64,000 nucleotides of DNA from Elusimicrobiota bacterium (GCA_043813605.1 JBDRKX010000047.1:53539-117538); one strand, 5' to 3'. Positions 1 to 62,163 are shown, counted from the stretch's first letter. Made by a program: numbers and translations. Notes: generated from the sequence alone by a model not told the origin.

Positions 1-300
1 GCCACAATACCTTTGAATTTCATCAGTTCGTCCCAGCTAAAAGGTTCTGCGAAATAACCCAAGGTTATATGCGGCATTCTTTCAGTGTGTTTTCCCCACT
101 CATCCCTTCTGGATGCTATAGGGTCCGTATTGTCTTCTGCAAGATATGACTGGACTTCCCAGAAAATACCCATTCCGATATCCCAGTTCAGTCCGCTCAC
201 TTCAGCTTCAAATGAAGGGGAGGCAATATCCGAAGCACGCGCCACTTCATCTTCCTTTATACCGCCCTGGGTAGTCAGGTGCAGTAATTCAGGTGCGACA
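1..300 (-). other. 2H phosphoesterase (LigT/CPDase-like) domain with paired H-x-T-x motifs; truncated by the window edge
   Basis: APELLHLTTQGG (verified at 241-300) and RMPHITLGYF (verified at 41-70). Confidence 0.45.
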
Positions 301-6300: not shown

Positions 6301-9300
6301 CTTCCTTTATATACAGGATATCCGGTATCTTCGGCATCACCTGCTTCTGCCCGTTTAACATATACTGCAACTTTGTCCAGCGGTATTTCCCACTTTATAA
6401 TATCGAATATCTGTTTTCTCAATGAGACCATTGCCGGATGCATGTTCTCAAAATGTTCTATTCCGTTAATCCTGATAGATATCAGTTTATCTCCGAATAT
6501 AGGCTCACCGGCTGCATCCAGCCCGAGTGAACCGTTTGAATCGACTATCTTATCATCCAACTGGCTGAATCCTATCAATTTCGCAATATACCTGGCTAAT
6601 CCTGACTCGAAATACCTGTGGAATTGTGCCAGGTAATCAGTCTCCTGTTTAGCACAGCTTATAGAAATCAAATACGGAAAATTCGGATGTTTGCTGGCTT
6701 TGCGCATCATATCCTGCCACAACTGAAGGTCCTTTGATCCCGGCCACAACTGTAATACAAGGTTGGTTCTGCCTGTAAAAGCCTTATATAATTTCCAGAA
6801 CAGGTACTGCCCGGTTAATGTAAGATAGTTTTTCGCGCCCCTGCTGTATCCGTTGAGAGCCGCATTCTGAATAAGTCCCGTCGCAAGTCCCGATTTAAAC
6901 TCATCCGGTTTCAGTTCACCATTTTCATCAAAGAACATAGTCGAGATCATATATGTGGTGAACAGGCCGCCCACGCTTATTCCCATCGGGATTATAATCT
7001 TCTTGTCCGCGAACAGGCCGTCGCCATTGTTCAGATGATCGTATGCCTGCCAGATATGTTCTGCTATGTTTTCCCGCAGGGTCTTTTTTATCGTCTTGAA
7101 TATCTGATCAGGATATGAATGTCCCGCAATGAGTACCGAATGGTTCTTAATAAGATCCAAGCCTGTTCCGCTTATATAGTATATACCGAAAAGCCTGTCA
7201 TAAGAGTATCTCTTGATCCACCCGTGTATAGCATCGAGCTCTATCTTTCCCTGTGTAAAGATTATCGCGGATTCAGTTCCGTCATCAAACCATAATTCAA
7301 GGTCCTCGTCTTCAACCTCTCTTTTCTGTCGAGGGGGAAAAACACTTGCAAATATTTTTTTGATACGGCTGGGTTTGGCAATATCGACCGGGTGGGTATA
7401 TGCAATGATATAATCTTCTACATACTGGACTGTCTTATTGAACGCTTCTATATCTCCGCGGGCATAATACTGCTCCAGGAACAATAGAATACGCTGCACC
7501 TTTGGATCCTCTTTCATTTCAGCATCTTCCACTTTCTTGATGATATCATTGACCTTCCTGCCCAGCATCTTCTTCCTGGCAAAAGTCAGCCAATGCCCGG
7601 GAGCTACAAACCTGAACGTCTTATGCCAAATCTCAACCTGTTTTTCTTCAATATTTACGAAATCGAGCTCATTATACTTCTTGGCGTTGTCCATGGCGTC
7701 CATGAACTGCCTTATTACCTGAGCCGTGCCCCTGTACCTTACATTATCCCCCTGGACATCTTTACCGACAATTACATTATCGTATTCCGAAACATATTGC
7801 TTCATTCCGAGAAAAACAGAGAGCAATGATTCGTCTTCAATATCCCACAGGAAACTGTCTGCCGTAGAATCACCCATTGCCAGTATCATACCTACGGTAT
7901 GTTTTCTCCTGATGAAATCCCTGACGCCGTCAGACTTGTTATAGAGGCTCATCTTCATAAAAGCATCACCGAAACTCGGATAGTACTCGTTTTTGGGAAG
8001 TTCTATTCCTCTTGCCGAAAGTATGCTCAATGCCTCGTTGAGCGCCATCTTTGTGTCTATACTGTCCAGTTTATTGTCATTATCAAGTATTACCAGCTCC
8101 GAATCGAATACCTGTATTTCCGTACTTGAGTATCTTTTTATAGCATTCTTGAATATCTGGTTGACATCGGTATAATTACCCGCTTCTTCCAATGCCGTGA
8201 CAGCTTTTTCAAACACATCCTGTCTGATGATCACATTATTAAACAGTTTCAGGTAAGCGATCGTGAACGCTCTTGCAATTTCAAACTGCATTTTAGGATC
8301 GAATGTTTTTTTTGTGTCTTCAGAAGTCTTTCTTTCAACTATTTTCTCTTTTCCGTTATATGTAAAAGAGGTATTCTGTGCGCCTGAAAGAGATATGATC
8401 TCAAGGTTCTCCATATACTTTTCAGTAACATTCTTTTTCATCAACTCCAGTATAGGCTTAATAACACGGGTATTAACCGCTTCTTTTTCAAATCGGATCT
8501 GCTTTTTGATGTGTTTTTCAGAATCCGGTGAATCGTATATCTTAACAGTCTTGATCTCTTCCGCCTGTGTACCGCTCACAAGAAGCACTTTTATTCCTGC
8601 TTCAAGTGCTTCTACGACAATTTTAAGGTTATCTCCTTCAAGCGGAGAAAGCTCGTCACGGGTAAGCGTCCGGTTAATATCAAGGACGATAGTCCTCAGA
8701 TCTACTTGTCTATCGGATTTTATCAGATTATCCAGCGCACTGGTTTTTTCGGTTATCGGTTCTTTACCCACGATCAACCGGCGATATTTTTTGGCCTGAA
8801 TAAATCTTACCCATGGACTTTCGGATATCTTATTAAAATACAATTCCTCGTCGATATCTGTGGCAGAAGGGATAATATTTACGGCACCGTCATCCACATA
8901 ATAGGCTTTCAGTTCACCGTTGTTTATCTTCCCTATGACTATATTATCCGGTTTCCAGCCGAAATCTTTCACATTTACATTGTTATCTATCAGCCCTCTT
9001 ATCAATCTACGTACCAGCTCCATTTCTTCCGTTGTCATCGAGCCGGCTTTTATATTCAATGTCTTTCCTACAACCCGCTCTGAGACAATATACTTGAAAG
9101 AACCGGCAAAACCTTTACTGATTATTCCGGGAGACAATCCCAATCCGGACAGTTTTTCAAGCATCCTTACTTCTTCAATAAAAGTGTTTTCAATACTGTC
9201 TTCGACATCCCACCTGCCTATTTTTATTACCCTGTCCGGATAGAACGGATGGACAAAAGCGCCTCTTGAAATATGTTCCGCCTCTTTTCTGATACCTTCC

Positions 9301-12300
9301 ATTTCTATAATCAGCCGGTTTTGACTGTCATCATATTGAAGAACGGGTTCTTCGGCAGGTTTTTCTGCAACTATTGCAAGCGGTATCTTTGGAAGGAAAT
9401 CGAATCTAGTGGCTATATGCCTGTTATAGAAATGTACAGATATGTTTCCTATGGAATGTAATAGCGCTAATATTCCGGCTACAGCTATTGCCGGAGTAAT
9501 CCCCTGACTTAAAAGAGTCAGGGCTACCGGTACAGCCATAGCCATCGAATGGACCGCAAGGATTATCCGGTCCAGCCGCGTAGCTTTTGCGGGTGGAGCG
9601 TTTATATCATAATACACCCGCCTGTGGGCGATGAGGAAGATGATCGTAGCAATAGAACCTGCGCCTAATGATGCCAGTACATTGTTGATATCAAAAGTGC
9701 TTCCAAGTAACGCCAGCCCGCCTGCAACAAATCCGAGCCCGTATGTCTCTGCGGCTTCGATCAATCTCCGGCCGATTATACTATGCACCCATCTTTCGGG
9801 CCAGTACGGACTGATTGCCAGCGGAGGTTTCCCGTCATATATCACTTCTTGAGAAAGCGTTTCCAGCCGCCGGGCTTCAAGGTATTCAAGTAATGTATGC
9901 CGTAACATAGATACTCTTTCAGCAAGGTCGACAGTAGTCTTGTTCAACTCGGCTATCAGAAACTTGACCTTATCTATATCCAGCCCTTCCCCGTTTTCTA
10001 TCCAATAATCAGAAAGGTCCCTGTTATCGATCACATTGTCTACTTCTCCCTTTATGACCTGTTCGAACGAGGTGAGTGTTTCCCTGATACTTCTCTTCCT
10101 GCCTGTCTCTGTAAGCCCGCGGTACATACGACGCGACAACCTTATCATACGGTCTTCTTCGAGATCATCAAAGTCCGCCTGGATAAAGAATTTCCTCACA
10201 CTTATACCTTCGGGTATTATCTCATCCATTTTCTTGCTTATCGCAAAAACGCCTTCAGCTATTACCAGTTTCTGTCCAGGCTGGAGTTTGACTGTTTTAT
10301 ATCCCACCCGTTTTCTCAGATTCCGGTCGTAATCAGGTATTTGGGTTTCTTTTCCTGCGAGAAGATCGCTGATATTCTTTTCAAGAAGTCCAAAATCATA
10401 AGGCCCGTTTTCAGTTGATTCAGCCACCAGGACAAACCTGGGATCGTTTTTATCAAAATTATATATACCCATACCTATTAACAGGTTACCCTCAGCTATA
10501 TCTTCGACCATCATGGTTTTCCCCGCGCCGGACAGGCCCCCGAGCAGTACAAGGCTGCCGTCAGGCATATCATCCGTAAGCCGCTTGAGTAAACCATCTT
10601 CATACGATATCTTTTGCGGTATTTTTGCAGCAGGTTTTACTTCTTCAGCTTCAGCAGTTTTTTCTGGAACTGCAGGATATTCTTTCCCTTCAGGCGTTCC
10701 CATAGTAACAAGTACTTTATGCCGTTTCCCGTCATTGACGAGGAGAATACCTTCTGCCGTTTCTATCCAGACTCCGTCCATTTCAATTTTTCCGATACCG
10801 GAGGAAACTACATCAGGATTTATCACTTCGATTTCATAGACAGATTTACCATATCTTTTTAAAACCTTAAACCCTTTTGCTCCCCACTCTTCGGGAAGCA
10901 CCGGATCGATAAACAGCCTGCTGCCGTCCCTGAATTTTAATCCCAGCATACTTTCCACCATTATCCTGAAGATCCAGCCGGCAGATCCCGTATACCCTGT
11001 CCATCCCGCCACGCCCTCGGGACTTATATCAGCAGCGGCGACATACGGCTCGCCCCTATAGTTTCTGTCCTTTGCATGTTCCGCAGGATTCAGAACCCTG
11101 TATACTTTCCATAATAGATCAGCGTATTTCCTTTGATCCTTGGAGCCGGTATCCTGACGCGCGATTATTGAAAGGGCCTGCACCATCCATACTATACCAT
11201 GGGTATATTGCCCGCCGTTTTCCCTGTCGCCGGGGTAATATTTTCCAAGATGCCCTTCCGGAAAATCTTCATTTCCGTTCACAGGTCTATCAAAAAGCCT
11301 TATGATATTTAGATTTTCATCATATAGTTCATCAAGCGCTGTCATAAATGCTTTTTTGGCAAGCTTTTCACCGACCGCACCGGATATTACGGACCAGGCT
11401 TGAGGTAAAGCAAATAGTTTTCTTATCCCGATACCCTTATCAGTAAAAGCCCTGATAAACCATCTCTTTCTCAGTCCTTTTTTAGCCAGTGCATATTTTT
11501 CTATATTTTTCGAGAGTTCACTAGCTCTTGATTTATATTCTCCGGCAGTTTCACTATCGCCTTTCTTTTCTGCCAGCGCGGCAAAATCCATCAGGGTCTT
11601 ATACAGAAAAAATGCAAGCCAGACACTTTCTCCTTTGCCTTTGATTCCTACTGCATCCAGCCCGTCGTTCCAGTCACCGGATCCTATCAAAGGAAGTCCG
11701 TGTTCCCCCATCCTTTTATTGATGACAAAGTCAATGGACTTTTTCGCGTGTCCATACACTGAAGCCGTCTGCTCTGGATCATCCGAAGAAATAAATTGCG
11801 TGACATAGTCTTTTTCATCCGCATTAAGAAGCCTGCCGCTCAGATACGGTATTTTCTCATCAAGGATATCCATATCACCCGTTACATCGACATAGTGCGC
11901 CAGGCCGTATGACAGCCACAGAAGATTATCCGATATACGTGTTCTTATTCCCAGGCTGACTTCCTTGCCATTTTCATTTATTCCGTAATCATGCCACCAG
12001 TGAAGGACATCTCCTTCAGGGAACTGCCTGGCCGCACACTTTATAAGATGTTCACGGGCCCTCTTGATATCTTCAGGAGTATTTGATGAAGCCAATGTCA
12101 GCACTGTCTGCAACTGATCCCTGAAACCAAAGGCACCTCCGGGCTGATAGAAACCGGTCTTTCCGAGATAATGCCATACAACTGCCTGATAACGCATCCA
12201 ATCTATCATCTTATTGAAGTTTTTATCAGGTGTTTCAACAACAAGATCATTCAGATAAGAATTCCAATTTCTCTGCCCTTTATTAAAAGTCTCACTAATA

Positions 12301-15300
12301 CTGGAAGGATCACTGTATTTTTTCATCAGTTCAGCAGCTCCGACTCCTGCTGCATCGTTTTCCGTCATGCCAAGTATATAAGTTACCCTGGACTTATACT
12401 CATTTTTTTCATTAAGGTTAAGCCTCACTGTTATCCCGGAAAACGGATCTGCCGCTGTCCTGAACACATCATTTCCCGCTGTAATAACAGAAGCGTCTTC
12501 CGCTATTACATTATGAAATGCTATCGAGTCAGGAACCAGCGCATCGGGATTGCGCGCCAATATTGTATCGTGTCTAACCTCAGTTTTCGTGTTATCTACG
12601 GCATTATTATAATCCCTGCTTAATGCCCACTTAAGAAAACTGCCTATCTCTATCTCTTTACTGCCCTCAGTTTTATCACCAAGATATTCGATATCGATAT
12701 CCCAGAATTCGACAGGCTCATTGTCGCCGGAGACGAACATCGTCATAGAGATCTTCCAGGTGTCTTTCTTATCATATATGTATTTGATATATCCCTGGCC
12801 TATTTCAACCTTATATACATTTTGATCCCTGTCTGGCTTAGGATTTGCAGCTATTGACCATTCCCGGCCGGTCTGGATGTCTTTTACAAGAACGCCTCTC
12901 AGAGGTTCTTCTGTAACTATATCCGGTTCGGCCGCAGTTACTCTCTTCTGCTGGGCATTACCATTAAAACTGAACACCGACCCTGCGGCGGTAGCGGCAA
13001 AACCGTATCCCGATTCATTGGCCACCACCTGGGTATAGGGTTTACCCGTTGCAAAAGGATCTTCTAATGTATAGGCGCGGCCGTCTTCTGAAAATATTCC
13101 GGCGGCTTTCTTTTCTTCCTTCGGTTCAGGGATTTCTCTTTTCATCCTCCATTGACGCCGGGCATGGGATGCGAACCAATCCATATATTTTTTCAAGCGC
13201 ACTTCCCGGAGAACTGCTTTATGAGTTTTTTCGCCTGCCGCCTGTTCCTGCTCTTTCAGATAATTATCATCCCTGTATTTGCCCAGCAGGCTTTTTACTT
13301 CCTTTCCATTTGAAGCCCTTCCGATCATAAATGTCATGCTTTTTTCACTGCCAGCCTTCAGTCTCATTTTCTTTGACAGGGCGCCGGCAGGATCCCTGAC
13401 ATAACTGGTCCCGGATATCAGTCCTTTTATCATTGCTATGGGTGATGACAGATTTCTAAGGCGCCCTATGAAGTTCATCCTGCTTTCAGCATGGCTGTCA
13501 ACTTGCCCGTCTCCGCCTATAGCGAAGAAGCCGAAAGGCTGCTGGTCCTGAGCATCTCCTGTAACCCTGCGGCGGGCGGTTATTACTTTCAGCTCTTTAT
13601 CGTAAGAAGCCCCTAACGTGAGTTTTCTGAATATAGTCGCATCCTTCCAGGCTACCATATGATCCATAATCCATTCAAGGTAACCGATAATATCCAGTTC
13701 CCGGTCAGTACCTGTATTGTTTATAAGCTGCACTTCCCATACCTCAACCGGATCATTCTTCGATACAAACCCGCTAACCTCAACTTTTATCTCACCTTCA
13801 GGAAGTTCCAGAGTACCTGTAATAATTATCTTTCCGTCCTGTACTTTCGTATCTAACGGCTTCAGCCCGACCGGAAGCATCTCACCGGTAGCCACGTCTT
13901 TTATGTAAAATATGCGGTTGTAATAAAGAGCTTCTTCTCCGAGCCAACTCGAACCGCCGCCTTCAGATGGAGCATGGATCGTATAACCGTGATGTCCTTC
14001 AAGAGCATCAGGCAGTTCAACTCCTACCTGCTCCTGCCTGTACTGGTATTGATAGTCATAGGCATTAGCTATATCGCTTTCAACCTTTTCTTCTTCTACC
14101 GCGTATTCGGATTGAGGCGTATTTAAAATCCGTTCAACGATACCGATTCGGGAGACAGCTGATAAGAGTGCTTTTTCTGTCTTTTCATCCAAACCTGCTC
14201 CTTCTATATCTTTTTTACTCCCTGTCACTATATAATACGGTTTCTCCTCCCGGATCAATCCTTTATCAATAAGGGCCGGTATACCTTCCAGTTCATCTTC
14301 AAATACAGCTCCCCTGTTAAAAGGATTGGTATGGAATAACTCCTGCAGATACCCGCCGCTCAGCAGATTGAATATTGAAATAGCTCCCATACCTGCGGAA
14401 TGGTGCGCATATATTCTGGGCGTTATTATTTTTGTTCCATCTTCTTTAAATTCAACCGACTCATAATATCCTACAGGTGTCTTCAATCCCATCTTTTCAT
14501 ATTTTCTTAAAGCCTTAAGGGATTCTTCCGAAGCCCACGGAGCCTCCATCTGGGCCGCATACGGAGAATATACTTTACGATTGATAACTTTACCGTCAAT
14601 GTTCTGCGCGTTACCGGCGACACCTATCGGACCGTAACCGACCCAATCCCCATTATCCTTCGGATCATAGGCTGTCTCGGATTGTCCAAAAACACCTTTC
14701 ATGGAGGCCGCAAGTTGTCTCCGGGTTGTTACAGAATGGACTTTGCTCAGCATTTCGGAATCATCTTCCCGCATAATGATCCCGGGAAGCTTGACTTCAA
14801 ATGATGAGCCGTGCCACGGCAGAGCAGGGACACCGGCTCCTTCCTCATTGGTACCCTTGAGAAATCTCTTCAAGTGTTTCCAGTGATGCTCCGGCAGCTG
14901 GCCTTCCATGATTCCAAGCATACTCGCTATCCTGTTTTCACTTAAAAGAAGGTCATAATAACCGTCACTGCCATGAAGGCCACTTTCAAAACCTTCAGTT
15001 TTCCTGATGTCAGCGTGCTGCCCGACGAAATGAAGGAGTCCGTTTTCTTCATTATAAAGCCTGTCGAACCGCATATCCCTGACTATTTTCAATATCCGCG
15101 CCTGGAGTTCGGGATCGGATATACTGCCTTCCGCCATTAACATAAATGCCGCGAAATTACCGTTATCGACCGTAGATATGGCCGCTACAAAATCATCGGG
15201 ATGGATGATCTTTTTCTGTTTATTATTTCCATTCTTATACCAGCTATCCTCGTATACATATAAATATCGCGTATTGTACCAGTTATATAGATGTCCCTGG

Positions 15301-18300
15301 TATTTGGGCAGTTTCTCAATAACGGCAACGGTGTTCCGCAGCCTTTTCAGGGCTTCTTCTTCTGTTATACTGCCGCTCTTCCATTCCATGACAGCAGTTA
15401 AAATATTTAATCCGATATTTGTAGGAGATGTCCTATGGTCTATTTTACTTCTGGCTTTCATAATCACATTGATTTTATTTTCCGCCCAGTTTCTTGTCAC
15501 AGGCAGCTTTGTAATAAAACTCAGTATCCGGATTTTAAGTTTATCACTGCCGGATAAGTTTAAGATAACATTATCCGGCGTCAGGAAATCGACGCAGGTC
15601 TCGTTAAGAGACCCTGTTTCAGGATCTACTTCACTTATGCCGGTCTTCGGATCGATCTCGGCAGGCAGTTTTTTAATATCTTCAAAAGTTGCATTGGCAA
15701 AAAGGTTATGATACCTGAAAGCCTCATTTAGTATTTCCTGATATGATCTGCGGCCGGCACGGCTCAACTCCGGTATTTTTCTCCCGGCTTTCTCAGGCAA
15801 AGACGGGATCGCAGTAACTGAGGCAGGTTCTTTTTCAGAAATTATGACTGTTTCAGGTATCTTAAATTCCTTCCCATCTCTTGTCCTGAATTTGGCCTGA
15901 TTTATTATTCTAACAGCGCTCTCCGGGCCGCCGCCGATTGTTATCGGCGCATCATCTTCATCACCTACGGATATTGCTCCCTCCAGGTTCAATATACGCC
16001 CGTCATTTCCAAACCCGTTTAAATATTTATCTGCTATGATTAAAATATTCTTATCACGGAGATCAGACAGATTATTTCTTTTCTCAACTGCTGCTTTAAA
16101 AACTTTAAAAGCTTCCAGTTTATCTGAAGTACAAATGTCCAGATTCTGATCTTGTGAAATATATATTTTTAAATCGTTTATCCCTTCAAGCTCTAACTCA
16201 TAACTCATTACATCTAAAGTCAATTTGTTGACGATACTTCTAAACTCCGTTAGAGTTAAGCCGGTTCCCCGTTCTAAATATTCTTTAATTTTGATGTTAC
16301 CTTTCAGGCTGAAAGGAACTTTGGTTTTATCTATGATTTGCTGTATTCTATTAACCTCATCTATACTAACTGTATCAATAAAGCCTCCAATCAAACTTAT
16401 ATTATATTTATTCCCTTCTTCTTCTTCTGCAGTTAACTCATACTTCGTTATTAAATTATTTATATACTTGACATCATTTTCTTTAAATTTTATATTTTCA
16501 ACGTGACCGTTATTTTCCAGTCTTGAACCATTAGAAGTGAAAATATAAAGATTCGCCCTGTCTCCCGTAATATACGGCAGTATATTTTTCCTGAGTGATT
16601 TTATTCCCCTGCCTGAGGCCAGCGCCACAGGTATTCCCATATTGAGAAGAATAGAGATTACATCTGCTATTTCTTTTGAAATCCCGGGAGTTAAAGTCAA
16701 AGTCCCATCTACATCGAAAAAAGCTCCGTGTTTGACCGCTTTTAAGGAATCCTCAAGCAGATTTACAGCGGGTTTTTCTTTTGCCGGTTTGACGAGTTTC
16801 ACGCCGAATTCTCTTTCTATATCTTCAAGCGTTATCCTGGCAGCTGCGCAGTTCGCTTCGCCTGCCCCGTAAGTTATGTGGAATATATTGTCATTTTTAT
16901 TAAAAACGGCTGTCGGATAAACCTGTTTCAGATCCAATTTCAGTAAACCCTTGAACCGTTTATATTTGGAATACCCGTAGATGCCTATAGCTTCAGCTAT
17001 TTCAGTATCTTTTGAGGGATATAGCAGCGGTTTTGGCTGGCCTACAAGCTTCAGGTTTTCATCAAAACCGGCCACCTCAGTAATATATACCCGATCGATT
17101 TCTCCGGCTTCCTTTTCATAAAACGCACGGTGAAGAAACATAAGATATTTTATTTTCCTTCCCTCAACAGGTATGAGCGGCGAGCCGCTTCCTACCCATT
17201 GGCCGTCAGGCGCATATATAACCGTATCTTTATCAAGGTTGAAACTATCCCAGAATTCAGCTCTTATTTTTTCATCAGTGATCAGATCTATCAGTTTTTC
17301 CGCGGAACCGATCTTTGTTATCTGTATGTCAGGTTTTATTCTGTGAATAAGTATAATGTTCCCGTCTTCCATCTGCTGGACTACGGCATTTTTGTGGTAA
17401 TAATCATTAAATCTGCTGCTCCCTATCGGCCCCTGATACTCAAATGTCTTCAGATCTCTGCTGAGAGCTACTGCCGGCCCTAATAGCTCATCCCATCCTG
17501 TTTCGGCATTACGTTCCACTTCGACATAAGTTACACACCACCATTTTTCACCTTTTATGGTTATTTGCGTTAGTCTCGGATTTTCAAAACTCCTGATCCT
17601 GCCACCTACAATTTCATCGTCAGCGGATATAAGCACCCTTAATGACTTTTTATCTACCTCGTATTCAGAAGTATCGCTGTTATAGGTGACATCGCCTATC
17701 CCTATAACGGAAGAAGTATCCTCATACCACGCTCTGAACACGATTTTATCATCTTCTATGTGCGGGTTTATTACACCCAGTATTTTACCTCTGGCGCTAA
17801 ATTCTGGGATGTCTTTTATATCATCTAATCCAAGTATTATCTCTTCACCGGGTTCTTTACCGTACCGTTCAGTATGGAATTTCTCTTCCATCTTCTTCAG
17901 GGTATCCTTATCCGTTACCCCGTAACGGCCATTGATAAATGCTCTTGCAATTGTCCTTATTTTTTGTAATAACCTGCTTATTGCCGGTTTCGGATAAAAT
18001 GTGATCCTCTCCTCAGGCATGATTATACGCTTCACGACTTGAGGCTTTTCGGCTTCAGCCCGCTTAATATCAATGGTTTCGATCACACTTTCAAGATGCA
18101 GTGAATGTTTACTGTTTAAATCGACAAGATAATCCCTTACATTATCTATATTATCCGCGACGACTATTCCTTTCTGCAATATGGTATAAAGAAATTCTGC
18201 TGATAAACTGTGCTCGTTTAATTCATGTTCGACCGCAGACAACAGTTTTACAGCATTTATGATATTTTGCTCAGGATAATCTTTGAATATTCCATCGATC

Positions 18301-21300
18301 TTTTCATCAGTTATTCCCAATTCCTGTAATTTATAACTTACTGCATATCGTTCATCTACATCAACTTTCAATTCTCTGATAATGTCATACATCGAGACCC
18401 TTGCCGCAGCGCAGTGAATATCTCCCGCGCCATAAAAGATATGAAGGACACCGTCTTTTACATAGCCTTCCGGAAAAGTATTCTCCAGATCAAGCATGTT
18501 TCTTGATTTAAATGCTTTATAAGCTTCGTATCCGAACAGACCGATAGTATCTGCCATTTCATAATCTTCTTGCGGAACAATAAATGCTTTAGGCTTGCCA
18601 ATTAATTGTAAATCTTTGTCAAGGCCGACAATTTCCCCTACATACCGGCGCCTTTGCTCTCCCTCTTCTTCTACTCTGAATGCCCGGTGAAGTGTAAAGA
18701 GATACTTTACATTGCCAAAATTATTTACAGGGATCAGTTGTGATCCGCCTCCCAGCCACTGTCCTTCAGGCGCTGTTAGAATTGCATCTTTGTCAGCATC
18801 AAAGCCTTTCCAGAATTTATTTCTATAATCTTCATCATGCATTAAACGATATACATCCTGAATAGAACCTATTTTCGTTATCTGAATGGCCGGTTTCAGC
18901 CTGTGTATCAGGACTATGGTTCCGTCATCAAGCTGCTGGAGGATACCGTCTTTGTGGTCCCTCTTTGAATAATAAGGGGCGCCTGTCCCAAGCACTCCAC
19001 GGTCATCAATCGTTTTTAAATCACTGCTTAGCGCTATCGCCGGGCGTACGGACCATTTACCCTCTAACTTTACCGCTTCGGTATATGTAACACACCATTT
19101 CCCGTCGATTTTAGTTAAACGCGGATCTTCACAAGAAAATGATTTAAAACCATATTTGTCTGCATCTTTTGGTGATATAAGCATCCGTATCGAGCCTTTT
19201 ATTATCTCGAACTCTTTGAGTTCCTTGTTGTAATCGAGGTCAGCAGCGCCTATTGAGGATACTCCGTTCGCATACCAGACACGGAAAACTATTTTATCGT
19301 CCAATACACCCGGATTAAATACACCGATTATTTTGCTCTTGATATCAAAATCAGGAAGCGATTCGATATCTTTTATACTAAGTACCAGTTTTGAATATCT
19401 TTCCGTATTGAAAGATTCTTCCGATTCTTCCAGCTTCTGTCTGTCCGTTACCCCGTATTCAATAGTTGTTTCTTCGATCATCTCAGCGACTACGGCAGGT
19501 TTTTCAATTGAAGCAACAAGATCTGCTATTATCGAACTCTGCTCGGCACCTGATATTTTTTCGAGCATTATTCCCGTGATATCTCTTCCTTCTAATACAA
19601 GGTAGCCCCTGTTATCACCATAGTGCTCGGCATGTCCGACATCCACATTGATTATCAGCTTATTCTTTTCATCATAGACTCTTATCCTATCCCCGATTTC
19701 AGACAAGGGCGGCGTATGGGCAACTATCTGCTTCAGCTCCGCAATTCCAAAATAGGTTACAATATCCCCGTTGTAATCCGCCCAGAATAAGCCGCCAGTT
19801 CCGCGTCCGCCCCGTGACTCACCCTGATTGAAAATATGATCCCTATAGCTGGCTTGCTCTATTCCGGCCTTGAAGCGTTCATTAAATTCTTCGTTTAATT
19901 CAGATGCCGGACGGCCTTGTGATAATTCATTGACCACTCCACCGTGCGCGAATATCATGCCGCCGGCATAATACGTTGCCTGCAGCCTGTCATATGCAAT
20001 ATCATCAAGCATATCAGCCAGCATACCTTTAATAACAGGATGGTCAGCTAATGCCTTAAACTCCTGTTCATCCTTAACAGATTTAATTCCTATGCTTTTT
20101 ACCAATCGATCACCGCCGTCAGCGAAGAAGGCAGGGGCGTAGTTATAATATCTGTTAAACAATTCCTGTTCTGCATCAAAATTAAAGGATGCCTGCAATT
20201 CCATGTTCATCTTATGGAACGCTTGAATAAACTCCAGCTCGTGGTTGCCGAGCAGTCTTACTACCTTTCCGCCCTTTGCTTCGGCTTTTTCCTGGAGATC
20301 CCTTATAAATTTAACCGCCTTGATACCATCCGGACCGCGGCCTATCATATCTCCCATCTGAACCAGTACAGTATCACCGCCGATCCAGTTATCTTTATCA
20401 TCTATCAGACCTGCGTCTCTAAGGTCATGCTTAAAGGCATCTAACGAACCTTCAATATCGCCGATAACGACATGCCTTCTATCAACAGCTTCATCCATCG
20501 TCGCTATACTGCGCGTGTCACCTCGGGTCCAGCCTTCCCGGGCGTTTTCTAATTGAATTCTTTTTGCTTGAACGTCTTCCCTTGTTATAGTGCCGGCGGT
20601 TTCAACCGGTTCTCTGAAATATGGTTCTGATATTTCAGGTATAAAATCCGCATATTTATCACCTAATATCAGTCTGGTTAATGCATAATCACTGCCCAGC
20701 ACTTCCCATAACTTAAGTACTGACTCCTTTGTAACTTTCTTATAATCAATAAGATCTAATTTATTGGAAGCAAAAGGCCAGTCTCCTTCATTAAGATAAG
20801 AGACAGGCAGGATAAAAATTCCTAAATTTTCATATTCGCGGCCGCCTTTTTGAATAAATTGATCCTCAGCTATACTTACTATTGCCGGCATACCGTAGAT
20901 ATCAGCAATAACAAACCTATGCATAGATCCCCCATCTCCAATAGCAGATGACTGATCAGGATAAATCTTTCCGCCTACACGCCTATCGTCATCTATATCA
21001 ACTACAACAGTAGTAAAACCTTTACCACTCAGTATTTTATTGACCTCATTGGCATACTTCTCGCAAACAGCCGGATATTCGATGGAACTTCTATAGCCCG
21101 TCAATTTTACTTCTTTCTCTGATTTTTCTTTCTGTATTGCCAGAAGGCCCATAACTTCTTTGATTTTGGATATACGTTCAGTATTCAGACTATTGCCTGT
21201 TATCTTTTCATATATATCTATGAACTTTTCCAGATCCATATTGGAATATAAATGATACACATAAGTTTCTTTTCTAACTATATCCTGGGCTAATCTAATT

Positions 21301-24300
21301 AATTCTTTCTGAATAGGTGTCTCTAATATTTTTTCATGTGCATCATCAAAGGAAAGGCCTTCTTGAAGGAGTTTCTGGAGGGTAAGTTCGCGCTCTATAA
21401 GAGCGTTAATCATTTTAATAACGGGCTTATTCCCATGCTCTCCGTATAACGCGGCAAACAATTTCTCATGGATTACCAGCATACCTTTGCCTGTCTTGTA
21501 ATCCATATCCAGCCAAGCCAGCATAAACAAGCCTTTATTTCTTATCAGCCTGTCGTCTGCTATTACCTTTACATCAATACCTTCCGGTATACCCAATAAT
21601 TCCAGAAGCTCTTTGTCAGCATTAAATTTTCTCTTTAAATCTTTTATACCGTCTTTTTCAAAGTCTTCCAGTTCCATCAGTTTTATTTCCTTTTTGGAAA
21701 GATATATATTGAGCAATATTTCAAATAGTTTATATATTGATATCCCCTGCAGCATTCCCGGCAGTTCAGGAATCTGTCTTTCAGTTATATCAACTCCAAA
21801 CTGTTTCAGTACTACAAGCGCTTCACTGAAAGGCGATGCCTTTACCAGCAACTTAACCATATCTGAAAGTGTACCTATATGCAGCATACTGATTTTTGCG
21901 ATCCCGGCTGCTGTCATCTCTTTCCTGCCTTTATCTATAACATCAGATTCAACAGTCTCGGTAATCAAACCGGCGGCCGCCTGATCAAGGAATACATTGA
22001 ACGAAGAATGGTTTTGAAAAGCGGTGGCCGGGACTTCGTGTGTTATCTCGCCGAGGATAGTCTTCTGAATAGCAACTGCTTTGCCTTCACCACTTGCAAG
22101 AAGCATTATTTCCCGGGAAGCGATAATATCCGCTATGCCCATGGTCAGAGCCTGCCTCGGAACGTCTTCTTTCCTTTTAAAGAATCTGGAGTTTGCCTCT
22201 CTTGTCTCTGGATGCAGATCGGTAATATGCGTAGATATAGCCGGGTCTGTACCGGGTTCATTGAAGGCGATATGACCGTTATTCCCTATACCGAGTATCG
22301 CTATATCTATACCTCCGGCATCCTTTATTGCCTCCCTGTACCTCGATATCTCCCCATTGATATCCGGAGCAATACCATTAAGGAAATTTATATTCTCTTT
22401 TTTTAGACCGTGGTGGTAAAGATGACTGAACAATTTTTCTTCCATGAAGAACCTGTAACTCTGGGAATGGTTTATAAGGTCTTCATAATAATTCGGGAAT
22501 ATATACTCATCCAGGTTAAAAGTAATAACTTTTGACCAGTCTACTTCGGCACCCTTGTTTATAAGTACTTTATACATGCCCTCCGGGGTAGAACCGGTCG
22601 CGAAGCATACTGTAGCTCTTCCCTTTTCTGCTATTTTCCTATTTATTAAATTAATAAGTTTGGCGGCTGCCTTTTCACTCATTTGATCATAGTCGGCAGA
22701 TAGTTGAATATTAAATCCTGCCGGAGGCTCATATTTATCCAGGAATGCAGCCATTATCATCTCAGGAGTCTCTAATTTTTCGATCTCATTGATAATCCAG
22801 CTTGCTTTAGCACCATACATATTCGTGAAAGACTGATTAAACGTATTTTTCTTGCTAAGAAGAACAGTTTCTCCTCTCTTTTCTACTTTTGTATCATCTC
22901 CTGATCGAAGAATCTCTAAATAATCGTGAGCATCCCGGATAAATCCGACAGCTGCTTCTTCTCCCATAACTTCTTTTATCCCGTTAAATATAGCTTTCAT
23001 AGAAAGTGAATTATCATAAATCATCAATTTGCTTAATACTACGAGTATCTCGAAAGGAGGATATCTCCTGGCAAGATCTATATCAAAAACTTTTAATACT
23101 CTTTCACCATCTCTTGAAACATAACCTAGATTCTCGAATTTAACATCTATAGGAAATTCAAAGCTATAACCGTTATATATTCCGGTTTGTTTCCATGTAT
23201 CCCGGTTAATTCTGCACGCTTCCAGATATGTTTTAACAGCATCGGTTAAAACCAGATACGCCTTATCTTCGCTGAGTCCTTCAAAATCTATACGTTCGGC
23301 ATATTCTTCAGTACTTATTATTAGGCTGTCTGTTCCATCGGAAGAGGTTACATTGTTTCTTGAAATAGCGATTTTTACCGCATTTTCACTCCTTGGCCAT
23401 ATTAAGAAGGTATCACCATAAAACGGATCTTTATCGTGCAAATCATCCCTGAATAATTCTGTTCCTTTGGAACTCTGTGTTTTAAGTACAAATACATATC
23501 TCTTGTTAACAGTAACTTTGTATGCTTTTTTAAAGTTCCCTTCGCCGATATATTCGACATTTACATCCTGTATTTTTTCCAATATGGATTCGTTGTAGAG
23601 TTTTGATACTGTATCTTCAATTATCCATGGATTACTGTTAATAATATCCATGCCCGGTTCTGATTCTTTTTCAAGTTCCGCGTCTGCCAATATAACTTCT
23701 TTACCAACAATCGGCTTTTTACCTACCAACTTACGGAGAATCTTTTTATCCGGTATTAAGTCAAACCATGGATTTCGTTGTATAACAGCGCCTATAATAA
23801 AATGCTCTTTATTTACAATCTTGTTCCTGTAAGTGTTTCTATCGATAAAAACAGGCGTCCTGCTCTTCACTACCGACCCGGTATCGATAAGATATGCTTT
23901 AAGCTCGCCGCCTTTTATGCGGCCGATCATGATATTATTAGGATTCAGATCTGTTAAATATTTATTATCTATTAATTCATTTATCAATTGCCTTATCAAT
24001 TCCAGTTCTTTTGAAGTCAGTTTATCGTATTCAGCGACGCTCGTGCCTTCGACCTTTTCGGAAACCATGTATCCCAGTTCATTATTTATACCGAACCGAC
24101 CGAATGCTGAAGGTTTCTGGCTTAATCCTGAATCAGAGAGTTCCGCCATCATCTTATATTCATGTTCCATACTGACAGTACTGGCCCTGATTATTTTGAT
24201 AACCTGTTCATTATCAAACGGATGGATGAATACGGCGCCGTTCCCGCCTTCCGCGAGGAATTTTGCTTCTCTTACTTCACCGTTGATCTCTACTTTGAGT

Positions 24301-27300
24301 TCATTCTTCGCCTGTTCATAGACAAGTCTGAATTCTTCAGCAGGTTTTACCTTTTCTATTGCTTCATAATGCCTTAATAAAACATCGCGTCTTGCCAGGA
24401 TCCCATTAATTTCCCGGTCAGTTAAATAAGCCGTAAGGGAGGTAAGTACCTCACGGTTCAAGCCTCTTAATTTCTCTATAATCTCTTCGTTAAACTCGAT
24501 AACTTCTAAAGAAGGTGGAAGTAAACTTGGTCTAGTGAAACTTTCGCCATTATCAATAGCGATCAGGTTATTTTCGGAATCGATCAATATGTTCTCCCCA
24601 TGCCAATCCATAATATTTCCAAGATAATCCAGTATAAACAGTGCGTTTAACTGTTTTTTACGGTTTAGATCTTTTGTTTTTTGTGCTTCTCTGTAATACG
24701 TTCTGTCGTATTTAGTAAACAATGCCGAAAAAATACCACTCAATATACTGGAATGCGGCCGGGTATTGTCGATCCATAATTCAACTGTAACTTCTTGGAG
24801 CTCTCCGTTGATCTCTATATCTCTCAGTTCTACAGGCGGAACATTTGTAAAGCCCAGTATTCTTGATAACCTGTAGACAGCAGCAGAATACCTCGGCAGA
24901 GACCTGGCATCTATGGTATCTACTGGTTTTATCAGGACTTCATATCCGCTCTCTGTTATTGCAGTATAGTGTTGGCCAAAAGAAGCTAATCTTTTCAGTA
25001 GAGGGAATTTAGTTATATTCAATATCTTTTCATTTTTCAGAGACTTACCTATATCTTCAAAAGGTATGTTCGTTATATTTCCTATTGTTTTAGATATTAC
25101 GCGCTTTTTGTCATTAATATCCGAAAAACTCCCTCTAAAATATGTTTTCCTGAAATTACGCTGAAAATGCTTTAAATACTTTTTCTGTTTTCTTATCTGG
25201 GATCTTGTCAGGCGTTTGAAAGTATCAGGATAAACAGTAAATACTTCACCAGTTGTCTTATAATCGACAATATTCAGTAGAGACTTATGATGGAATTCTA
25301 CCGAATCAAGTGTAGAAGTAAACTGAAAGGCCTTATATCCCCGTTCACTGAGATTCGCCAACAGTGTCTCAGTAAGGAATGTACCCCGGCCTTTTATACC
25401 GTCCTTTACTGTAGCCACATATATACCGTCAGCCTTTTGACCATCAGCATCCGTTATAACCGGCTCCCACGCTCTGAATCCGGTTACATGCCCGTTATTA
25501 TCTATCAGTACCATCTGGTTCATTATCCGCCAGATCCGGTTATTGTCTATGCTGATATCATTCAGTATATAATCCGCCGCCATATACTTATATTCACTAA
25601 AAGAATCTGTTAGGTGATCTGTGCCGTATTTAGAAAACGCCTCTGACAGATCTACTATACTGCCCAGTTTTTCATCTTTCGCTACAGTAAACTCCTTGAC
25701 CAGAAGATCCGTCATGATATAATTTTTCAGTTCCAGAAGCCTGTTTAAGCGAGAAGGAGACTCAGTACTGTCTCTTTTGTCTTCCACAATATCCAGCACC
25801 CTGATACCGGATTCCGGCCTGATACCCAGTCTGTCATATTGTTCTTTTATACTTTCAACATCGAAAAGATCATCTTCAATTGATCTTATCAGCTCAGCAA
25901 ATTCCTTTTCAGAAACTTCGGAAGGTTTACCTTTATCTTTGAATATGGTCTTTAAGCCCGGATATATATCGGATATCCATTCATTATCCCCTGTTATTCC
26001 CATAAACCTGTATATGACCATCTTCAAGGTCTGGTATGCTATATTCATTGCCCAGGTAAATGAGAAATTCCTGTTATTCAGTTCTTCCAGCGCGACAGAG
26101 TATTTTCTTGTCCATTCTGTCCGGGTGCCCCGCTGCATCGATGTTCCTGCGCCCCTTACGGACGGCAAGATTCCTATTATACCGGGTTTACTGTATTTAT
26201 ATATTTCCCCATATTCATCCCAGAGGTCACTTTCAAGAAGCGGCCTGGGCCCGAATAACGACATGTCTCCTCTAAGTACTGCGAATACCTGCGGTACCTC
26301 GTCAAGAATAGTCTGGCGGAGTTTCATCCCGAACCAGCCCACATGTTTATCCGGTTCCCGCATTGTCCTCAGTTTATAGACATTGAACGGTTTTCCCTGG
26401 TATCCGATCCTTTCCTGCATGAACACCGGTGTACTTCGTGTTTCTATCGCCACGATCGGTGAAATAAAAGTAATAAAAACTATTGCCGGTATCAAAAAGA
26501 GAGACGATATGACAATATCCATTATTCTTACGGATCTCGATCCTGCGATATTTTTACGGGGTTTCTGTATTAGCAATTGAGCCAGATCAGTTACATTATC
26601 CAGTATCGCTTCTTCTATCTTAGCAGGCAGGTTTATCCGCACTGCATCAGTTCTCTCTGCATCCAGCAGTCTTACCGGATTATCGAGCATCAGCCTTTCG
26701 GTGAGCAATACTACAAGCAGCTCTTCAACAAATACTGAGTCATCACTATATTCTTTCCCATAATTGTTTATAAAATATCTTTTAAGCTGTTCGAAATCTT
26801 TTATCTGTGTATCTTCATATATCCCGGGATCTTTTAATTTTGCGAGTATATTCGCTAAATCTTCTTTATACTGCTCGGCGGTTTCTGCCGTAGTTTCCTT
26901 TGCCGGTTCAGTAATGATCTCTACCAGCTGCTTTTTCCTGCCGGTAATAACATTAAACATCGATCTGGCATTACTTACAGTATGGAGTAGGATCGGAGCC
27001 CATACCGTGCCCGTTATATACATGGATAATGCGTATACAAAAGAATCTCCCATAATATAGAAAAGCATATCTTTATCCGGTACTCTCTCCTGGTCTACAT
27101 GTTTCTTAGCAAACCACCAGGAACTCGCAAGACCCGTAATAAGTAATGCAGGTATCTCTCCTATATACGGCGTAAGCAGCGTAAACGGCAGATAGAATGT
27201 CACTCCCCTGTGATATATCTCTTCCCAGACAGGCGTGACAATGACCCTTATCCTCATCCATACGGAATCTAGCATTTCTCTGCGTATTTCAGGTTGATAA

Positions 27301-61574: not shown

Positions 61575-61591
61575 TTCTGTTTAAAATACAT

Positions 61592-61630
61592 AAAAAAAAC
61601 CCGCACTCTGTTCATCTTAAAACAAAGTGC
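61592..61630 (-). terminator. Rho-independent terminator read on the minus strand: 8-bp GC-rich stem CCCGCACT/AGTGCGGG, 18-nt loop, followed by an 8-T tract
   Basis: + strand aaaaaaaacccgcactctgttcatcttaaaacaaagtgcgggttt. On the + strand only TTT follows the stem, so it is effectively unidirectional. It ends 18 nt before the giant ORF start codon. Confidence 0.7.
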
Positions 61631-62163
61631 GGGTTTACGTTCGGGCACACAGCCCACCCGTAAATACCTCTTATGGGATTAATATCATACTCATCTGACC
61701 TGTTTACAATGCATTTTTGCAGCGGATTCAGGAATCTTAGAGACCACCACTGATAAAACTTCAGTTTAGGCAAGATGAGCACCTCCAGGTCTCTCTTCTT
61801 CATGCTGATTTCTCTGACTGCTATTCCTACAAAACATATCAGCATCAGAAGTATACTCTTATCGCCGGAAATGATTATGGTACTTATTATGTATGCCATA
61901 AACCCCGCGAACTTCCTGCTTTCTTTGCGTTGTTCAGGAACAGTCGGTATCTTTTTCTTAGCAGTAACAGGGTTAAACATCCTTTTTGCCATCCGGTCCA
62001 CTTCAAAGACCGCACGGGAACAATAGTTGGAATTTTTTATGATTATTGATATGTGGTTACTGTAGTTTCTGTAGGACTGCAGTATTCCCATAAATGAGAA
62101 TATTACAACGACTCCCCCCGCAATAATGCTGAAAAATACTTTTCTTTTAGCGAAAAAAGACAT
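61612..62163 (-). CDS. Hypothetical small membrane protein (183 aa, two hydrophobic helices); may not be a real gene
   Basis: Track ORF. Hydrophobic segments SIIAGGVVVIFSFMGIL and YIISTIIISG...LLMLICFVGIAV. The TGA stop at 61614-61612 falls inside the terminator hairpin loop. No recognisable domain. Confidence 0.35.
   Translation of the reverse strand: MSFFAKRKVFFSIIAGGVVVIFSFMGILQSYRNYSNHISIIIKNSNYCSRAVFEVDRMAKRMFNPVTAKKKIPTVPEQRKESRKFAGFMAYIISTIIISGDKSILLMLICFVGIAVREISMKKRDLEVLILPKLKFYQWWSLRFLNPLQKCIVNRSDEYDINPIRGIYGWAVCPNVNPHFVLR

Follow-up and report, generated by a model that had tools for sequence, protein, structure and literature searches.

Most of the GH130 enzymes characterised so far form oligomers ranging from dimers to hexamers (PMC8950772), and the donor site of Uhgb_MS is shaped by its dimer interface (PMC12814180). 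The proton-donor Asp is reported to be invariant across GH130, and in BT3780 the substitutions D142N, D363A and E141Q each abolish activity (D142N and D363A in Table 3 of PMC4599007). A Glu/Lys pair is the published marker of beta-1,2 linkage. Predicted GH130 phosphorylases have all been reported as monomodular and without a signal peptide, and GH130-GH130 proteins are rare in CAZy (PMC7660257). The giant-protein literature has reported proteins of at least 10,000 aa in Elusimicrobiota too, and for giant proteins it has described a module of sugar-metabolism domains as well as architectures anchored in the inner membrane (10.1101/2023.11.21.568195; 10.64898/2026.06.07.730766). GH130 is mentioned neither in West-Roberts et al. 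2023 (10.1101/2023.11.21.568195) nor in Nielsen and Lui 2026 (10.64898/2026.06.07.730766). Here, we analysed a 64,000-nucleotide stretch of DNA from an Elusimicrobiota bacterium (the window) and found an anciently duplicated GH130 pair, separated by a 146-aa helical linker within a megaprotein, which we read with modest confidence as an active phosphorylase module and a non-catalytic partner.

On the minus strand, window positions 3-61580 form one frame without stop codons. The giant ORF in this frame (3..61574) begins with an ATG at 61572-61574, its nearest upstream stop lying at 61581-61583, and its length of more than 20,526 codons is a lower bound, as the C-terminus lies beyond the low end of the window. 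Both GH130 copies fall in this frame, which bears out the predicted intragenic arrangement in a stronger form than had been claimed. A Pfam search placed about 20 domains or families in the frame, and a hydropathy scan revealed 18 hydrophobic segments, some overlapping in clusters and one of them N-terminal. GC skew and AT skew were uniformly negative across the window. Homologues of the N-terminus are annotated proteins of Elusimicrobiota MAGs, and no dockerin/TSP3 'Archaeovorin' signature was seen in the ORF. The ORF shows the features that define the giant multi-domain proteins of the PVC group: a length of 10,000 aa or more, TM segments and numerous Pfam domains of enzymes. The host of both copies is a membrane-anchored multi-enzyme megaprotein strung with sugar-metabolism enzymes, a type already reported for Omnitrophota and Elusimicrobiota. 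This host was one of three points that the original prediction had missed, together with the active-site signatures, complete in copy 1 and with losses in copy 2, and the near-orphan sub-branch to which the copies belong.

Copy 1 (18363..19457, minus strand; ORF residues 14042-14406) is a five-bladed beta-propeller with a full catalytic signature, and copy 2 (16800..17924, minus strand; ORF residues 14553-14927) belongs to the same fold family and has a degenerate active site. Pairwise BLASTP aligned them with 174/379 identities (46%), 65% positives and E=1e-112, confirming a tandem duplication of adjacent copies; in a MAFFT alignment the identity was 48%. The motifs on which the prediction was built were located on the minus strand: CEDPRLT in copy 1 (19113-19133) and FENPRLT in copy 2 (17568-17588), IGS..DE..R..FW as IGSIQDVYRLMHDEDYRNKFW and IGSAEKLIDLITDEKIRAEFW, and YGAG...CAAAR as YGAGDIHCAAAR and YGAGEANCAAAR. 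The predicted unit of about 430 aa had to be corrected, as the conserved unit measures 365-375 aa and recurs with a period of 515 aa (1545 nt). The period exceeds the unit because a non-repeated linker of 146 aa intervenes (17925..18362, minus strand), which lies outside the repeat and is predicted to be helical, with low-confidence helices in the tandem AlphaFold2 model. The linker had no Pfam match, and neither the region upstream of copy 1 nor the flanking sequence of a related fragment, L001, resembled it. A family profile run against the 20,526-aa frame detected exactly two copies, at 205 bits for copy 1 and 190 bits for copy 2, each with full profile coverage.

At the nucleotide level the two copies are 57% identical, with 41% identity at third codon positions, and no in-register DNA repeat was found between them. 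Third positions are saturated despite the 48% amino acid identity, and on this comparison the duplication is old and detectable at the protein level alone. An identical sequence was absent from the public collections searched, which would suit an assembly or sequencing artefact, or a giant frame that is not a genuine gene. We regard such an origin as extremely improbable, since a collapsed or expanded repeat cannot yield copies 57% identical in DNA without shared repeats, and an open frame of 20,526 codons with about 20 significant Pfam domains is impossible by chance. In addition, the N-terminus has homologues among Elusimicrobiota MAG proteins, and a homologous GH130 fragment is present in an independent metagenome.

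The tentative assignment to a GH130/DUF377-type family held up. PF04041 matched copy 1 weakly but above its gathering score (29.5 versus 26 bits, E 4.6e-7, profile positions 30-118 of 320), and the Pfam search gave no direct match for copy 2. Profiles built from PF04041-positive proteins, without the window sequences, matched both copies over their full length (113-121 bits for copy 1 and 82-106 bits for copy 2), and the profile from close stand-alone relatives gave 121 and 106 bits, respectively. All 33 homologues found by word-index search carry PF04041, and P0035-37, the nearest relatives that occur as stand-alone proteins, match it over its full length at 131-190 bits. The AlphaFold2 model of copy 1 (pLDDT 85, pTM 0.87) is a five-bladed propeller, in agreement with the predicted beta-propeller topology, and its top 32 Foldseek matches are all GH130. 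The whole-tandem model was poor (pLDDT 62, pTM 0.45), and in it the strands of copy 2 were recovered at low confidence. Taken together, a GH130 fold for the tandem is nearly certain. Membership of GT108 (the Leishmania MTP mannosyltransferase/phosphorylases) was considered and rejected, as GH130 structures score closer.

The sub-branch is nearly an orphan, with 20 matches among 1.84 billion representative proteins and 15-24% identity to any characterised GH130 enzyme. In the window copies, an N-terminal helix specific to this lineage is joined by two helical inserts. With the NCBIfam equivalogs NF052550 (cutoff 450) and NF050092 (cutoff 550), the scores reached 25.1 and 23.2 bits, respectively, so that a substrate can be transferred only weakly from beta-1,2-mannobiose phosphorylases; by these scores, the GH130 domain here is not orthologous to the characterised enzymes of that type.

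We then compared active-site signatures across an alignment of 87 related domains, using the eight diagnostic positions of Table 2 of PMC7660257: the -1 Asn, the +1 Arg, the Glu and Asp of E-D-P-R, a Lys, the phosphate Arg, the phosphate His and a C-terminal Asp. At 8/8 positions, copy 1 agrees with Teth514_1788 and Teth514_1789, both verified beta-1,2 phosphorylases, having N48 in the -1 subsite, E110 and D111, K169, R186 and H257, and D346. Its proton-donor Asp111, in the motif CEDPR, is encoded by GAT at 19125..19127 (minus strand) and corresponds to UhgbMP D104 and BT3780 D142 (PMC7660257, PMC4599007). The -1-subsite Asp, in the motif YGAGD, is encoded by GAT at 18420..18422 (minus strand) and corresponds to BT3780 D363 and UhgbMP D304. 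The phosphorylase-type Arg/His pair (UhgbMP R168/H231) is R186/H257 in copy 1 and has equivalents in copy 2, with no carboxylate base there. The residue signature is of the phosphorylase type and not that of a hydrolytic glycosidase, the term used in the original prediction. The beta-1,2 Glu/Lys pair (BT3780 E141/K199; Uhgb_MS E136/K184) is E110/K169 in copy 1 and the same in copy 2; the rule comes from enzymes more than 70% divergent from the window branch, which makes it a mere lead for the substrate.

From this signature, copy 1 is predicted, with little better than even confidence, to be an active phosphorylase, and a beta-1,2-mannoside is its tentatively predicted substrate, a possibility that we hold below even. 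Copy 1 would then act with inversion as a glycoside phosphorylase for beta-1,2-mannosides: the Asp of CEDPR would protonate the glycosidic oxygen via an O3 relay, and inorganic phosphate, bound by Arg186, His257 and also Lys169, would attack C1. The product would be alpha-mannose-1-phosphate, or else the reverse reaction would elongate a beta-mannoside.

Two features of the phosphate site and its surroundings bear on whether copy 1 is catalytic without being a phosphorylase, acting mainly as a GDP-mannose-dependent beta-mannosyltransferase (GT108 or bifunctional beta-1,2 GH130-like) or as a hydrolase. Copy 1 has a short L2 loop following its His-Arg motif, as do Teth514_1788 and Teth514_1789, which accept GDP-Man (PMC12814180). 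Copy 1, copy 2 and L001 all carry Trp where Uhgb_MS has the accessory basic residue R242, leaving fewer than four phosphate contacts; four contacts are said to mark good phosphorylases, and three are linked to transferase-leaning enzymes (PMC12814180). However, R242A in Uhgb_MS lowers transferase activity 10-fold and phosphorylase activity 3.2-fold (PMC12814180), so the loss of this residue counts against a transferase, and GH130 structures rank above a GT108-like structure for copy 1. A hydrolase is opposed by the intact Arg186 and His257 and the absence of a carboxylate base replacing them (PMC4599007, PMC7660257). We therefore consider a transferase or hydrolase unlikely, and a phosphorylase remains our preferred reading of copy 1.

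A further alternative is that neither copy is catalytic in vivo, both being carbohydrate-binding or scaffolding propellers of the megaprotein. The great divergence of the sub-branch (15-24% to characterised enzymes), with its extra N-terminal helix and two helical inserts, is compatible with such a role, as are the frame break that interrupts the GH130 copy of L001 and the precedent of the GH130 meta-node UC4, which lacks catalytic residues (PMC7660257). Against it, copy 1 and the L001 copy have diverged for a long time and yet retain all of the diagnostic catalytic and phosphate residues. These two copies are 60% identical, and third positions are saturated between the window copies; such a pattern would be expected only with selection for catalysis, and we regard two non-catalytic propellers as improbable.

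Copy 2, in contrast to copy 1, reads N R E N K R H E and departs from the signature at both essential Asp sites, with an additional D170N change. In the 87-domain alignment, the proton-donor position is occupied by an Asn in the motif FENPR (AAT, 17580..17582, minus strand), the sole exception to Asp in that column, and the -1-subsite Asp position by a Glu in the motif YGAGE (GAA, 16857..16859, minus strand), again the only residue other than Asp. The three changes are independent single-base differences, so a single sequencing error is insufficient to explain them. Copy 2 is still under constraint: it gives a full-length profile match, amino acid identity is 48% in the face of saturated third positions, and its acceleration is only modest (in 972/1000 bootstraps its distance to 11 outgroups exceeded that of copy 1).

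Because the proton donor is Asn and the -1 Asp that binds O4/O6 is Glu, copy 2 is likely to be inactive in the canonical reaction. The opposing view is that both copies are active, copy 2 acting on a different substrate or through another acid (such as the retained neighbouring Glu) in a bifunctional tandem; indeed, copy 2 keeps six of the eight diagnostic residues (Asn, Arg, Glu, Lys, Arg and His) and the full-length fold, and its Asp-to-Glu change at the -1 subsite retains a carboxylate. However, each of the other 86 domains has Asp as the proton donor, D142N and E141Q each abolish the activity of BT3780, and two, arguably three, active-site acids are changed in copy 2, making two active copies quite unlikely. 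With the fold and most ligand-contacting residues still in place, copy 2 is most likely a non-catalytic partner. It could take the place of the second subunit that GH130 oligomers usually have or, alternatively, bind a glycan or sugar phosphate without turnover.

The pair sits within a long soluble stretch of the megaprotein, among other enzyme-like modules, all on the minus strand. Upstream of copy 1 lie a NagB-like glucosamine-6-phosphate deaminase module (21963..22697; TIGR00502, 230.6 bits; PF01182, 80 bits) and a calcineurin-like metallophosphoesterase (20076..20471; PF00149, 32.3 bits), in which inspection of the sequence showed the variant motifs GDIEG, GDMIGRG and GNHE. Directly after copy 2 comes a Cof-type HAD-IIB phosphatase-like module (16131..16721; PF08282, E 7.2e-8; TIGR00099, TIGR01484) with an intact motif I (FDVDGTL). 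Further downstream (10941..14639), a weak glucoamylase-like domain (PF10091, 19.7 bits, under its cutoff) occurs with GH94 supersandwich (PF06165, E 3.7e-53) and GH94 catalytic (PF17167, E 1.2e-70) domains. The neighbouring modules are of sugar-phosphate enzyme types, typically cytoplasmic in character, which suggests a sugar-phosphate processing segment that may face the cytoplasm. A bolder proposal, which we hold to be speculative and unlikely, is that the active/dead pair is a fused pseudo-heterodimer, the dead copy completing or gating the live site, and acts as one stage in a sugar-phosphate 'assembly line' that is anchored in the membrane and passes on sugar-1-phosphates. If so, the NagB-like, metallophosphatase-like, GH130, degenerate GH130, HAD phosphatase and GH94 phosphorylase modules would form the line in a single megaprotein, and sugar-1-phosphates derived from beta-mannosides or beta-glucans would be handed between adjacent modules, possibly during consumption of host or prey envelope glycans.

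Among known enzymes, Teth514_1788/Teth514_1789 (PDB 9FJ8/9GPH, 7FIP; GH130_6) have the eight diagnostic residues and a short L2 loop in common with copy 1, at 18-24% identity. They are stand-alone proteins of about 300 aa, whereas the window copies form a tandem in a megaprotein and add an N-terminal helix, a blade-3 helical insert ('IGS..DE..R..FW') and a helical insert of about 18 aa before blade 5. The window copies also have Trp for the accessory Lys/Arg before [IV]-G-x-G, and copy 2 lacks both essential Asp residues. Unlike the monomodular, signal-peptide-free phosphorylases of PMC7660257, both copies are modules within an ORF exceeding 20,526 aa.

The beta-1,2-mannosidases BT3780/BACOVA_03624 (PDB 5A7V, 3QC2) share the fold and the -1/+1 residues (Asn74, Arg89, Glu141, Asp142, Lys199 and Asp363), and BT3780 D142N is an experimental model for the substitution in copy 2. 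These enzymes are secreted and have Glu227 and Glu268 in place of the phosphate Arg/His, whereas both window copies keep Arg and His. The pair formed by N73/D344 in BfMGP and N74/D363 in BT3780 is N48/D346 in copy 1; in copy 2 the Asn is kept and the Asp is replaced by Glu.

The sole homologues from the word-index search were Patescibacteria GH130-GH130 proteins (about 635 aa, 22-26% identity). These are likewise tandem propellers with one degenerate half each, and their N-terminal halves share a helical insert with the window copies. Their halves are fused directly and about 31% identical, whereas the window copies have 146 aa between them. At 48% identity between its copies, the window duplication is independent and younger. 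The degenerate half also differs: in Patescibacteria it is N-terminal and has lost the phosphate Arg and His while keeping the proton-donor Asp, whereas in the window it is C-terminal, lacks the Asp residues and retains Arg and His. The host resembles the giant proteins of Omnitrophota/PVC (10.1101/2023.11.21.568195; 10.64898/2026.06.07.730766), which likewise exceed 20,000 codons and combine hydrophobic segments, sugar-metabolism/HAD/HD domains and module duplications, although its nearest N-terminal homologues are from Elusimicrobiota, not Omnitrophota (36-45% identity). The tandem GH130 pair is a rare but recognisable variant within a known enzyme family.

We scanned the window in six frames and found a minus-strand frame without stops running from 61580 to 3, which spans at least 20,526 codons, the C-terminus lying beyond the low window end. 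Its first ATG is at 61572-61574 (ORF 3-61574, minus strand), and a hydrophobic N-terminus comes next. GC skew and AT skew were uniformly negative over all 64 kb, as expected from a single long minus-strand coding unit. The plus-strand ORFs at 14000-23000 were all short, low-complexity and antisense, as accounted for by the giant minus-strand frame there, and they were dropped as genes. Upstream of the giant gene, the same strand carries ORFs 61612-62163 (minus, 183 aa) and 62281-63990 (minus, 569 aa); neither had a Pfam match, and the 569-aa product had no exact entry in the public gene index.

The original prediction placed a tandem intragenic duplication of a beta-propeller glycosidase, tentatively of GH130/DUF377 type, at 16960-19450. 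All the motifs that it quoted were found in the minus-strand giant frame, and direct BLASTP confirmed the duplication inside this one ORF: copy 1 (18363-19457, minus strand) and copy 2 (16800-17924, minus strand) shared 174/379 identities (46%) and 65% positives (E=1e-112), with 48% identity in a MAFFT alignment. A BLASTP search with the region as query and the whole ORF as subject recovered nothing but the self-match, and the copies were paired by direct comparison instead. The GH130 family profile gave exactly two matches in the whole ORF, both full length, at 205 and 190 bits. The pair occupies residues ~14,040-14,930 of the ORF, with a start-to-start spacing of 515 aa and a 146-aa linker (17925-18362, minus strand) that is predicted with low confidence to be helical. 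This linker had no Pfam match and did not resemble what lies upstream of copy 1. Neither it nor the window flanks resembled the flanks on L001, a 2.5-kb metagenome contig carrying the closest related GH130 fragment, and a duplicated unit including the linker was therefore dropped. At the DNA level, the copies were 57% identical overall and 41% identical at third codon positions, which indicates saturation, and no in-register DNA repeat was found between them. These results argue against an assembly artefact, and we give the duplication being an artefact almost no credence; it is ancient and visible at the protein level.

We then assessed the family assignment. Copy 1 matched Glyco_hydro_130 (PF04041) at 29.5 bits (cutoff 26; E 4.6e-7), with only a third of the model covered, and copy 2 alone had no match in Pfam. 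A word-index search of 5.8 billion proteins yielded 33 matches (P0001-P0033), all with PF04041, at 22-26% identity; all were ~635 aa, and those few with a taxon name were Patescibacteria. When the two-copy profile was run exhaustively with HMMER over 1.84 billion representative proteins, no more than 20 of them reached E<=1e-3. The top-ranking one (P0034) is the fragment of another giant-type ORF on L001, and the next three (P0035-37) are stand-alone proteins of 317-423 aa, full-length PF04041 members at 131-190 bits, which share the helical insert originally read as 'IGS..DE..R..FW'. The genes around one of them, P0037, were housekeeping genes. With profiles built from external sequences only, the scores were 113-121 bits for copy 1 and 82-106 bits for copy 2. 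The profile of both copies found nothing meaningful among PDB sequences, and single-sequence phmmer gave only marginal GH130 matches (E 0.038), so bridging via homologues was needed. Scans of GTDB genome contigs and JGI metagenome contigs found no relatives of the GH130 module. The AlphaFold2 model of copy 1 (pLDDT 85, pTM 0.87) was a five-bladed propeller to which an N-terminal helix and two helical inserts are added, not a fold unrelated to glycosidases. In a Foldseek search of the PDB, ranks 1-32 were all GH130 structures, the best being the beta-1,2-mannoside phosphorylases 7FIR/7FIP, 9GPH and 9FJ8 (E 2.5e-13). The PF04041 match, the homologues and the fold support the GH130 assignment with refinements, and on homology the copies are placed in a strongly divergent, nearly orphan GH130 sub-branch.

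The residue code of GH130 has been published (PMC7660257 Table 2, PMC4599007, PMC4264767). It comprises the proton-donor Asp in (E/Y)-D-P-R, a -1-subsite Asn, a C-terminal Asp and an Arg/His pair, phosphate-binding in phosphorylases, whose place is taken by carboxylates in hydrolases; linkage is predicted by a +1-subsite pair (E/K beta-1,2; E/R beta-1,3; Y/R beta-1,4). We aligned 87 domains, namely both window copies, L001, 16 representatives, the 33 Patescibacteria proteins each as two halves, and the verified phosphorylases Teth514_1788 and Teth514_1789, whose sequences were reconstructed. The signature of copy 1 (N48, R59, E110, D111, K169, R186, H257, D346) was the same as in the Teth514 enzymes, and that of copy 2 was N, R, E, N, K, R, H, E. 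At the proton-donor and C-terminal positions, Asp was invariant in the 86 other domains, copy 2 being the sole exception at both columns, and copy 2 also carried Asn at the position of D170. The changed codons are AAT at 17580-17582 (proton donor), GAA at 16857-16859 (C-terminal Asp) and AAT at 17388-17390 (D170); these are three independent single-base differences, so a single sequencing error cannot account for them. In the characterised enzyme BT3780, D142N abolished activity, as did D363A (PMC4599007). From the signatures and these mutants, we infer that copy 1 could run the canonical inverting mechanism, in which phosphate is the nucleophile, and that copy 2 could not. That both copies are active is quite improbable; copy 2 does retain the other six signature residues, but the two Asp residues that it lacks are those invariant elsewhere in the alignment.

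Copy 1, copy 2 and L001 all have Trp at the position that is Lys/Arg in other members and corresponds to R242 of Uhgb_MS, and R242A in that enzyme lowered phosphorylase activity 3.2-fold and transferase activity 10-fold (PMC12814180). The cutoffs of the NCBIfam equivalog models were missed by a wide margin. Given the Trp and these missed cutoffs, a beta-1,2-mannoside is only a lead as the substrate of copy 1. It is unlikely that copy 1 is a transferase or hydrolase; the Trp substitution bears on this reading, and copy 1 holds the phosphorylase Arg/His pair. That both copies are non-catalytic seems very improbable beside the whole signature of copy 1. In the best-supported reading of the sequences, copy 1 is an active phosphorylase module and copy 2, fused to it, is its degenerate and non-catalytic paralogue. 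Copy 2 could then take the place of the second subunit in the usual GH130 oligomer or, alternatively, could bind ligand without turnover. Characterised GH130 enzymes range from monomers to hexamers, dimers or hexamers being commonest (PMC8950772), and the donor site of Uhgb_MS is shaped by the dimer (PMC12814180). AlphaFold2 gave a low-quality model of the whole 886-aa tandem (pLDDT 62, pTM 0.45).

The giant ORF contains about 20 Pfam enzyme domains: HD, a DUF3141/PHB-depolymerase-type alpha/beta hydrolase, GDE_N, GDE_C, GH77, two LOG-like domains, two metallophosphatases, an Rce1-like protease, a Bac_transf sugar transferase, three YrbL-type kinase-like domains, NagB, the two GH130 copies, a Cof-type HAD, a weak glucoamylase-like domain and a complete GH94 phosphorylase. 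A hydropathy scan detected 18 hydrophobic segments, one of them N-terminal, and the GH130 pair lies within a long soluble stretch bounded by those near residues 11,693 and 17,300. Its immediate neighbours there act on sugar phosphates or require phosphate, and on this ground the pair may face the cytoplasm, an orientation that the chemistry of phosphorylases would predict for residues ~11,700-17,300. Just upstream of copy 1, the metallophosphoesterase module at 20076-20471 (minus strand) has non-canonical metal-site motifs (GDIEG for the usual GDxHG, GDMIGRG for GDxxDRG) and may be another degenerate enzyme module. At 10941-14639 (minus strand), a GH94 supersandwich and a GH94 catalytic domain come after a weak glucoamylase-like (PF10091) region, an order that may resemble the C-terminal portion of cyclic beta-1,2-glucan synthases and beta-1,2-oligoglucan phosphorylases. 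A GC-rich island at 37500-40500 (0.51-0.58 vs ~0.42 elsewhere) covers part of the GDE_C and GH77 modules and may be a more recently acquired segment of the ORF. GC was at background level in the GH130 tandem, and a local trough of 0.296 was seen at 16000-16499, directly after copy 2 in the region of the HAD module. Only two homologues, sharing 45% and 36% identity, were found for residues 1-800, both of them partial Elusimicrobiota MAG proteins. Proteins of >=10,000 aa are on record from Elusimicrobiota and Omnitrophota, and inner-membrane-anchored giants with abundant sugar-metabolism domains have already been catalogued; GH130 is not mentioned in either paper (West-Roberts et al. 2023; Nielsen and Lui 2026).

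To place the duplication, we compared both copies with L001 over 270 shared columns, where identity was 60% for copy 1 and L001, 50% for the two copies, and 48% for copy 2 and L001. In identity bootstraps, copy 1 and L001 were the closest pair in 1000/1000 replicates, and in 972/1000 the distance to 11 outgroups was greater for copy 2 than for copy 1. Either the duplication would predate the split of the L001 lineage, or copy 2 would have accelerated after loss of catalysis, or both. L001 (1-2462; JGI 3300041085, Ga0452209_587200) is the sole close relative of the module, and is coding along its whole length. Its GH130 copy is broken by a stop and frame change directly after CEDPRLTKIG, with ~25 residues absent. 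Unrelated sequence and no second copy follows, and its flanks are unlike those in the window, which indicates shuffling of modules between giant genes of this type. At least nine more sets of internal paralogues, at 27-48% identity, lie in the giant ORF, among them (all minus strand) 45402-46880 vs 43611-45176, 36138-36815 vs 30726-31394, 23658-24362 vs 8787-9401 vs 4194-4874, and 57162-57764 vs 3381-3980; a further adjacent tandem (~570-aa period) belongs to them, as do three scattered YrbL-type kinase-like copies. Given these sets, module duplication appears to be a general route by which the giant gene grew.

GH130 phosphorylases are prized for both breakdown and synthesis of beta-mannosides, and the characterised ones are, to our knowledge, stand-alone proteins. 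What is new here is a divergent GH130-GH130 tandem inside a giant multi-enzyme ORF, its second copy, as read from sequence, naturally inactivated. One propeller has the whole catalytic signature and its duplicate the Asp-to-Asn change that experimenters use to inactivate these enzymes, which makes the tandem a natural experiment on what a 'dead' GH130 subunit or pseudo-enzyme partner contributes. This branch, with its own helical inserts and Trp for a phosphate-contacting basic residue, also has a bearing on the rules put forward in 2025 for telling phosphorylases from transferases. The pair offers a concrete, datable case of a module duplicated and then losing function in one copy, one way in which giant bacterial genes grow; it is informative as an instance but points to no new principle, and current understanding stands. 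CAZy records rare GH130-GH130 proteins (PMC7660257). The Patescibacteria homologues have two xEDPR motifs each (CEDPR in all instances but one), which indicates that each is a GH130-GH130 fusion (33/33), and the GH130 literature examined describes no function for this conserved, 'asymmetric' tandem. Its halves are ~31% identical, and the case is independent of the window tandem: the C-terminal half has a complete phosphorylase signature, whereas in the N-terminal half the phosphate Arg is uniformly replaced by Thr/Ser and the His mostly by Ser, with the proton-donor Asp kept.
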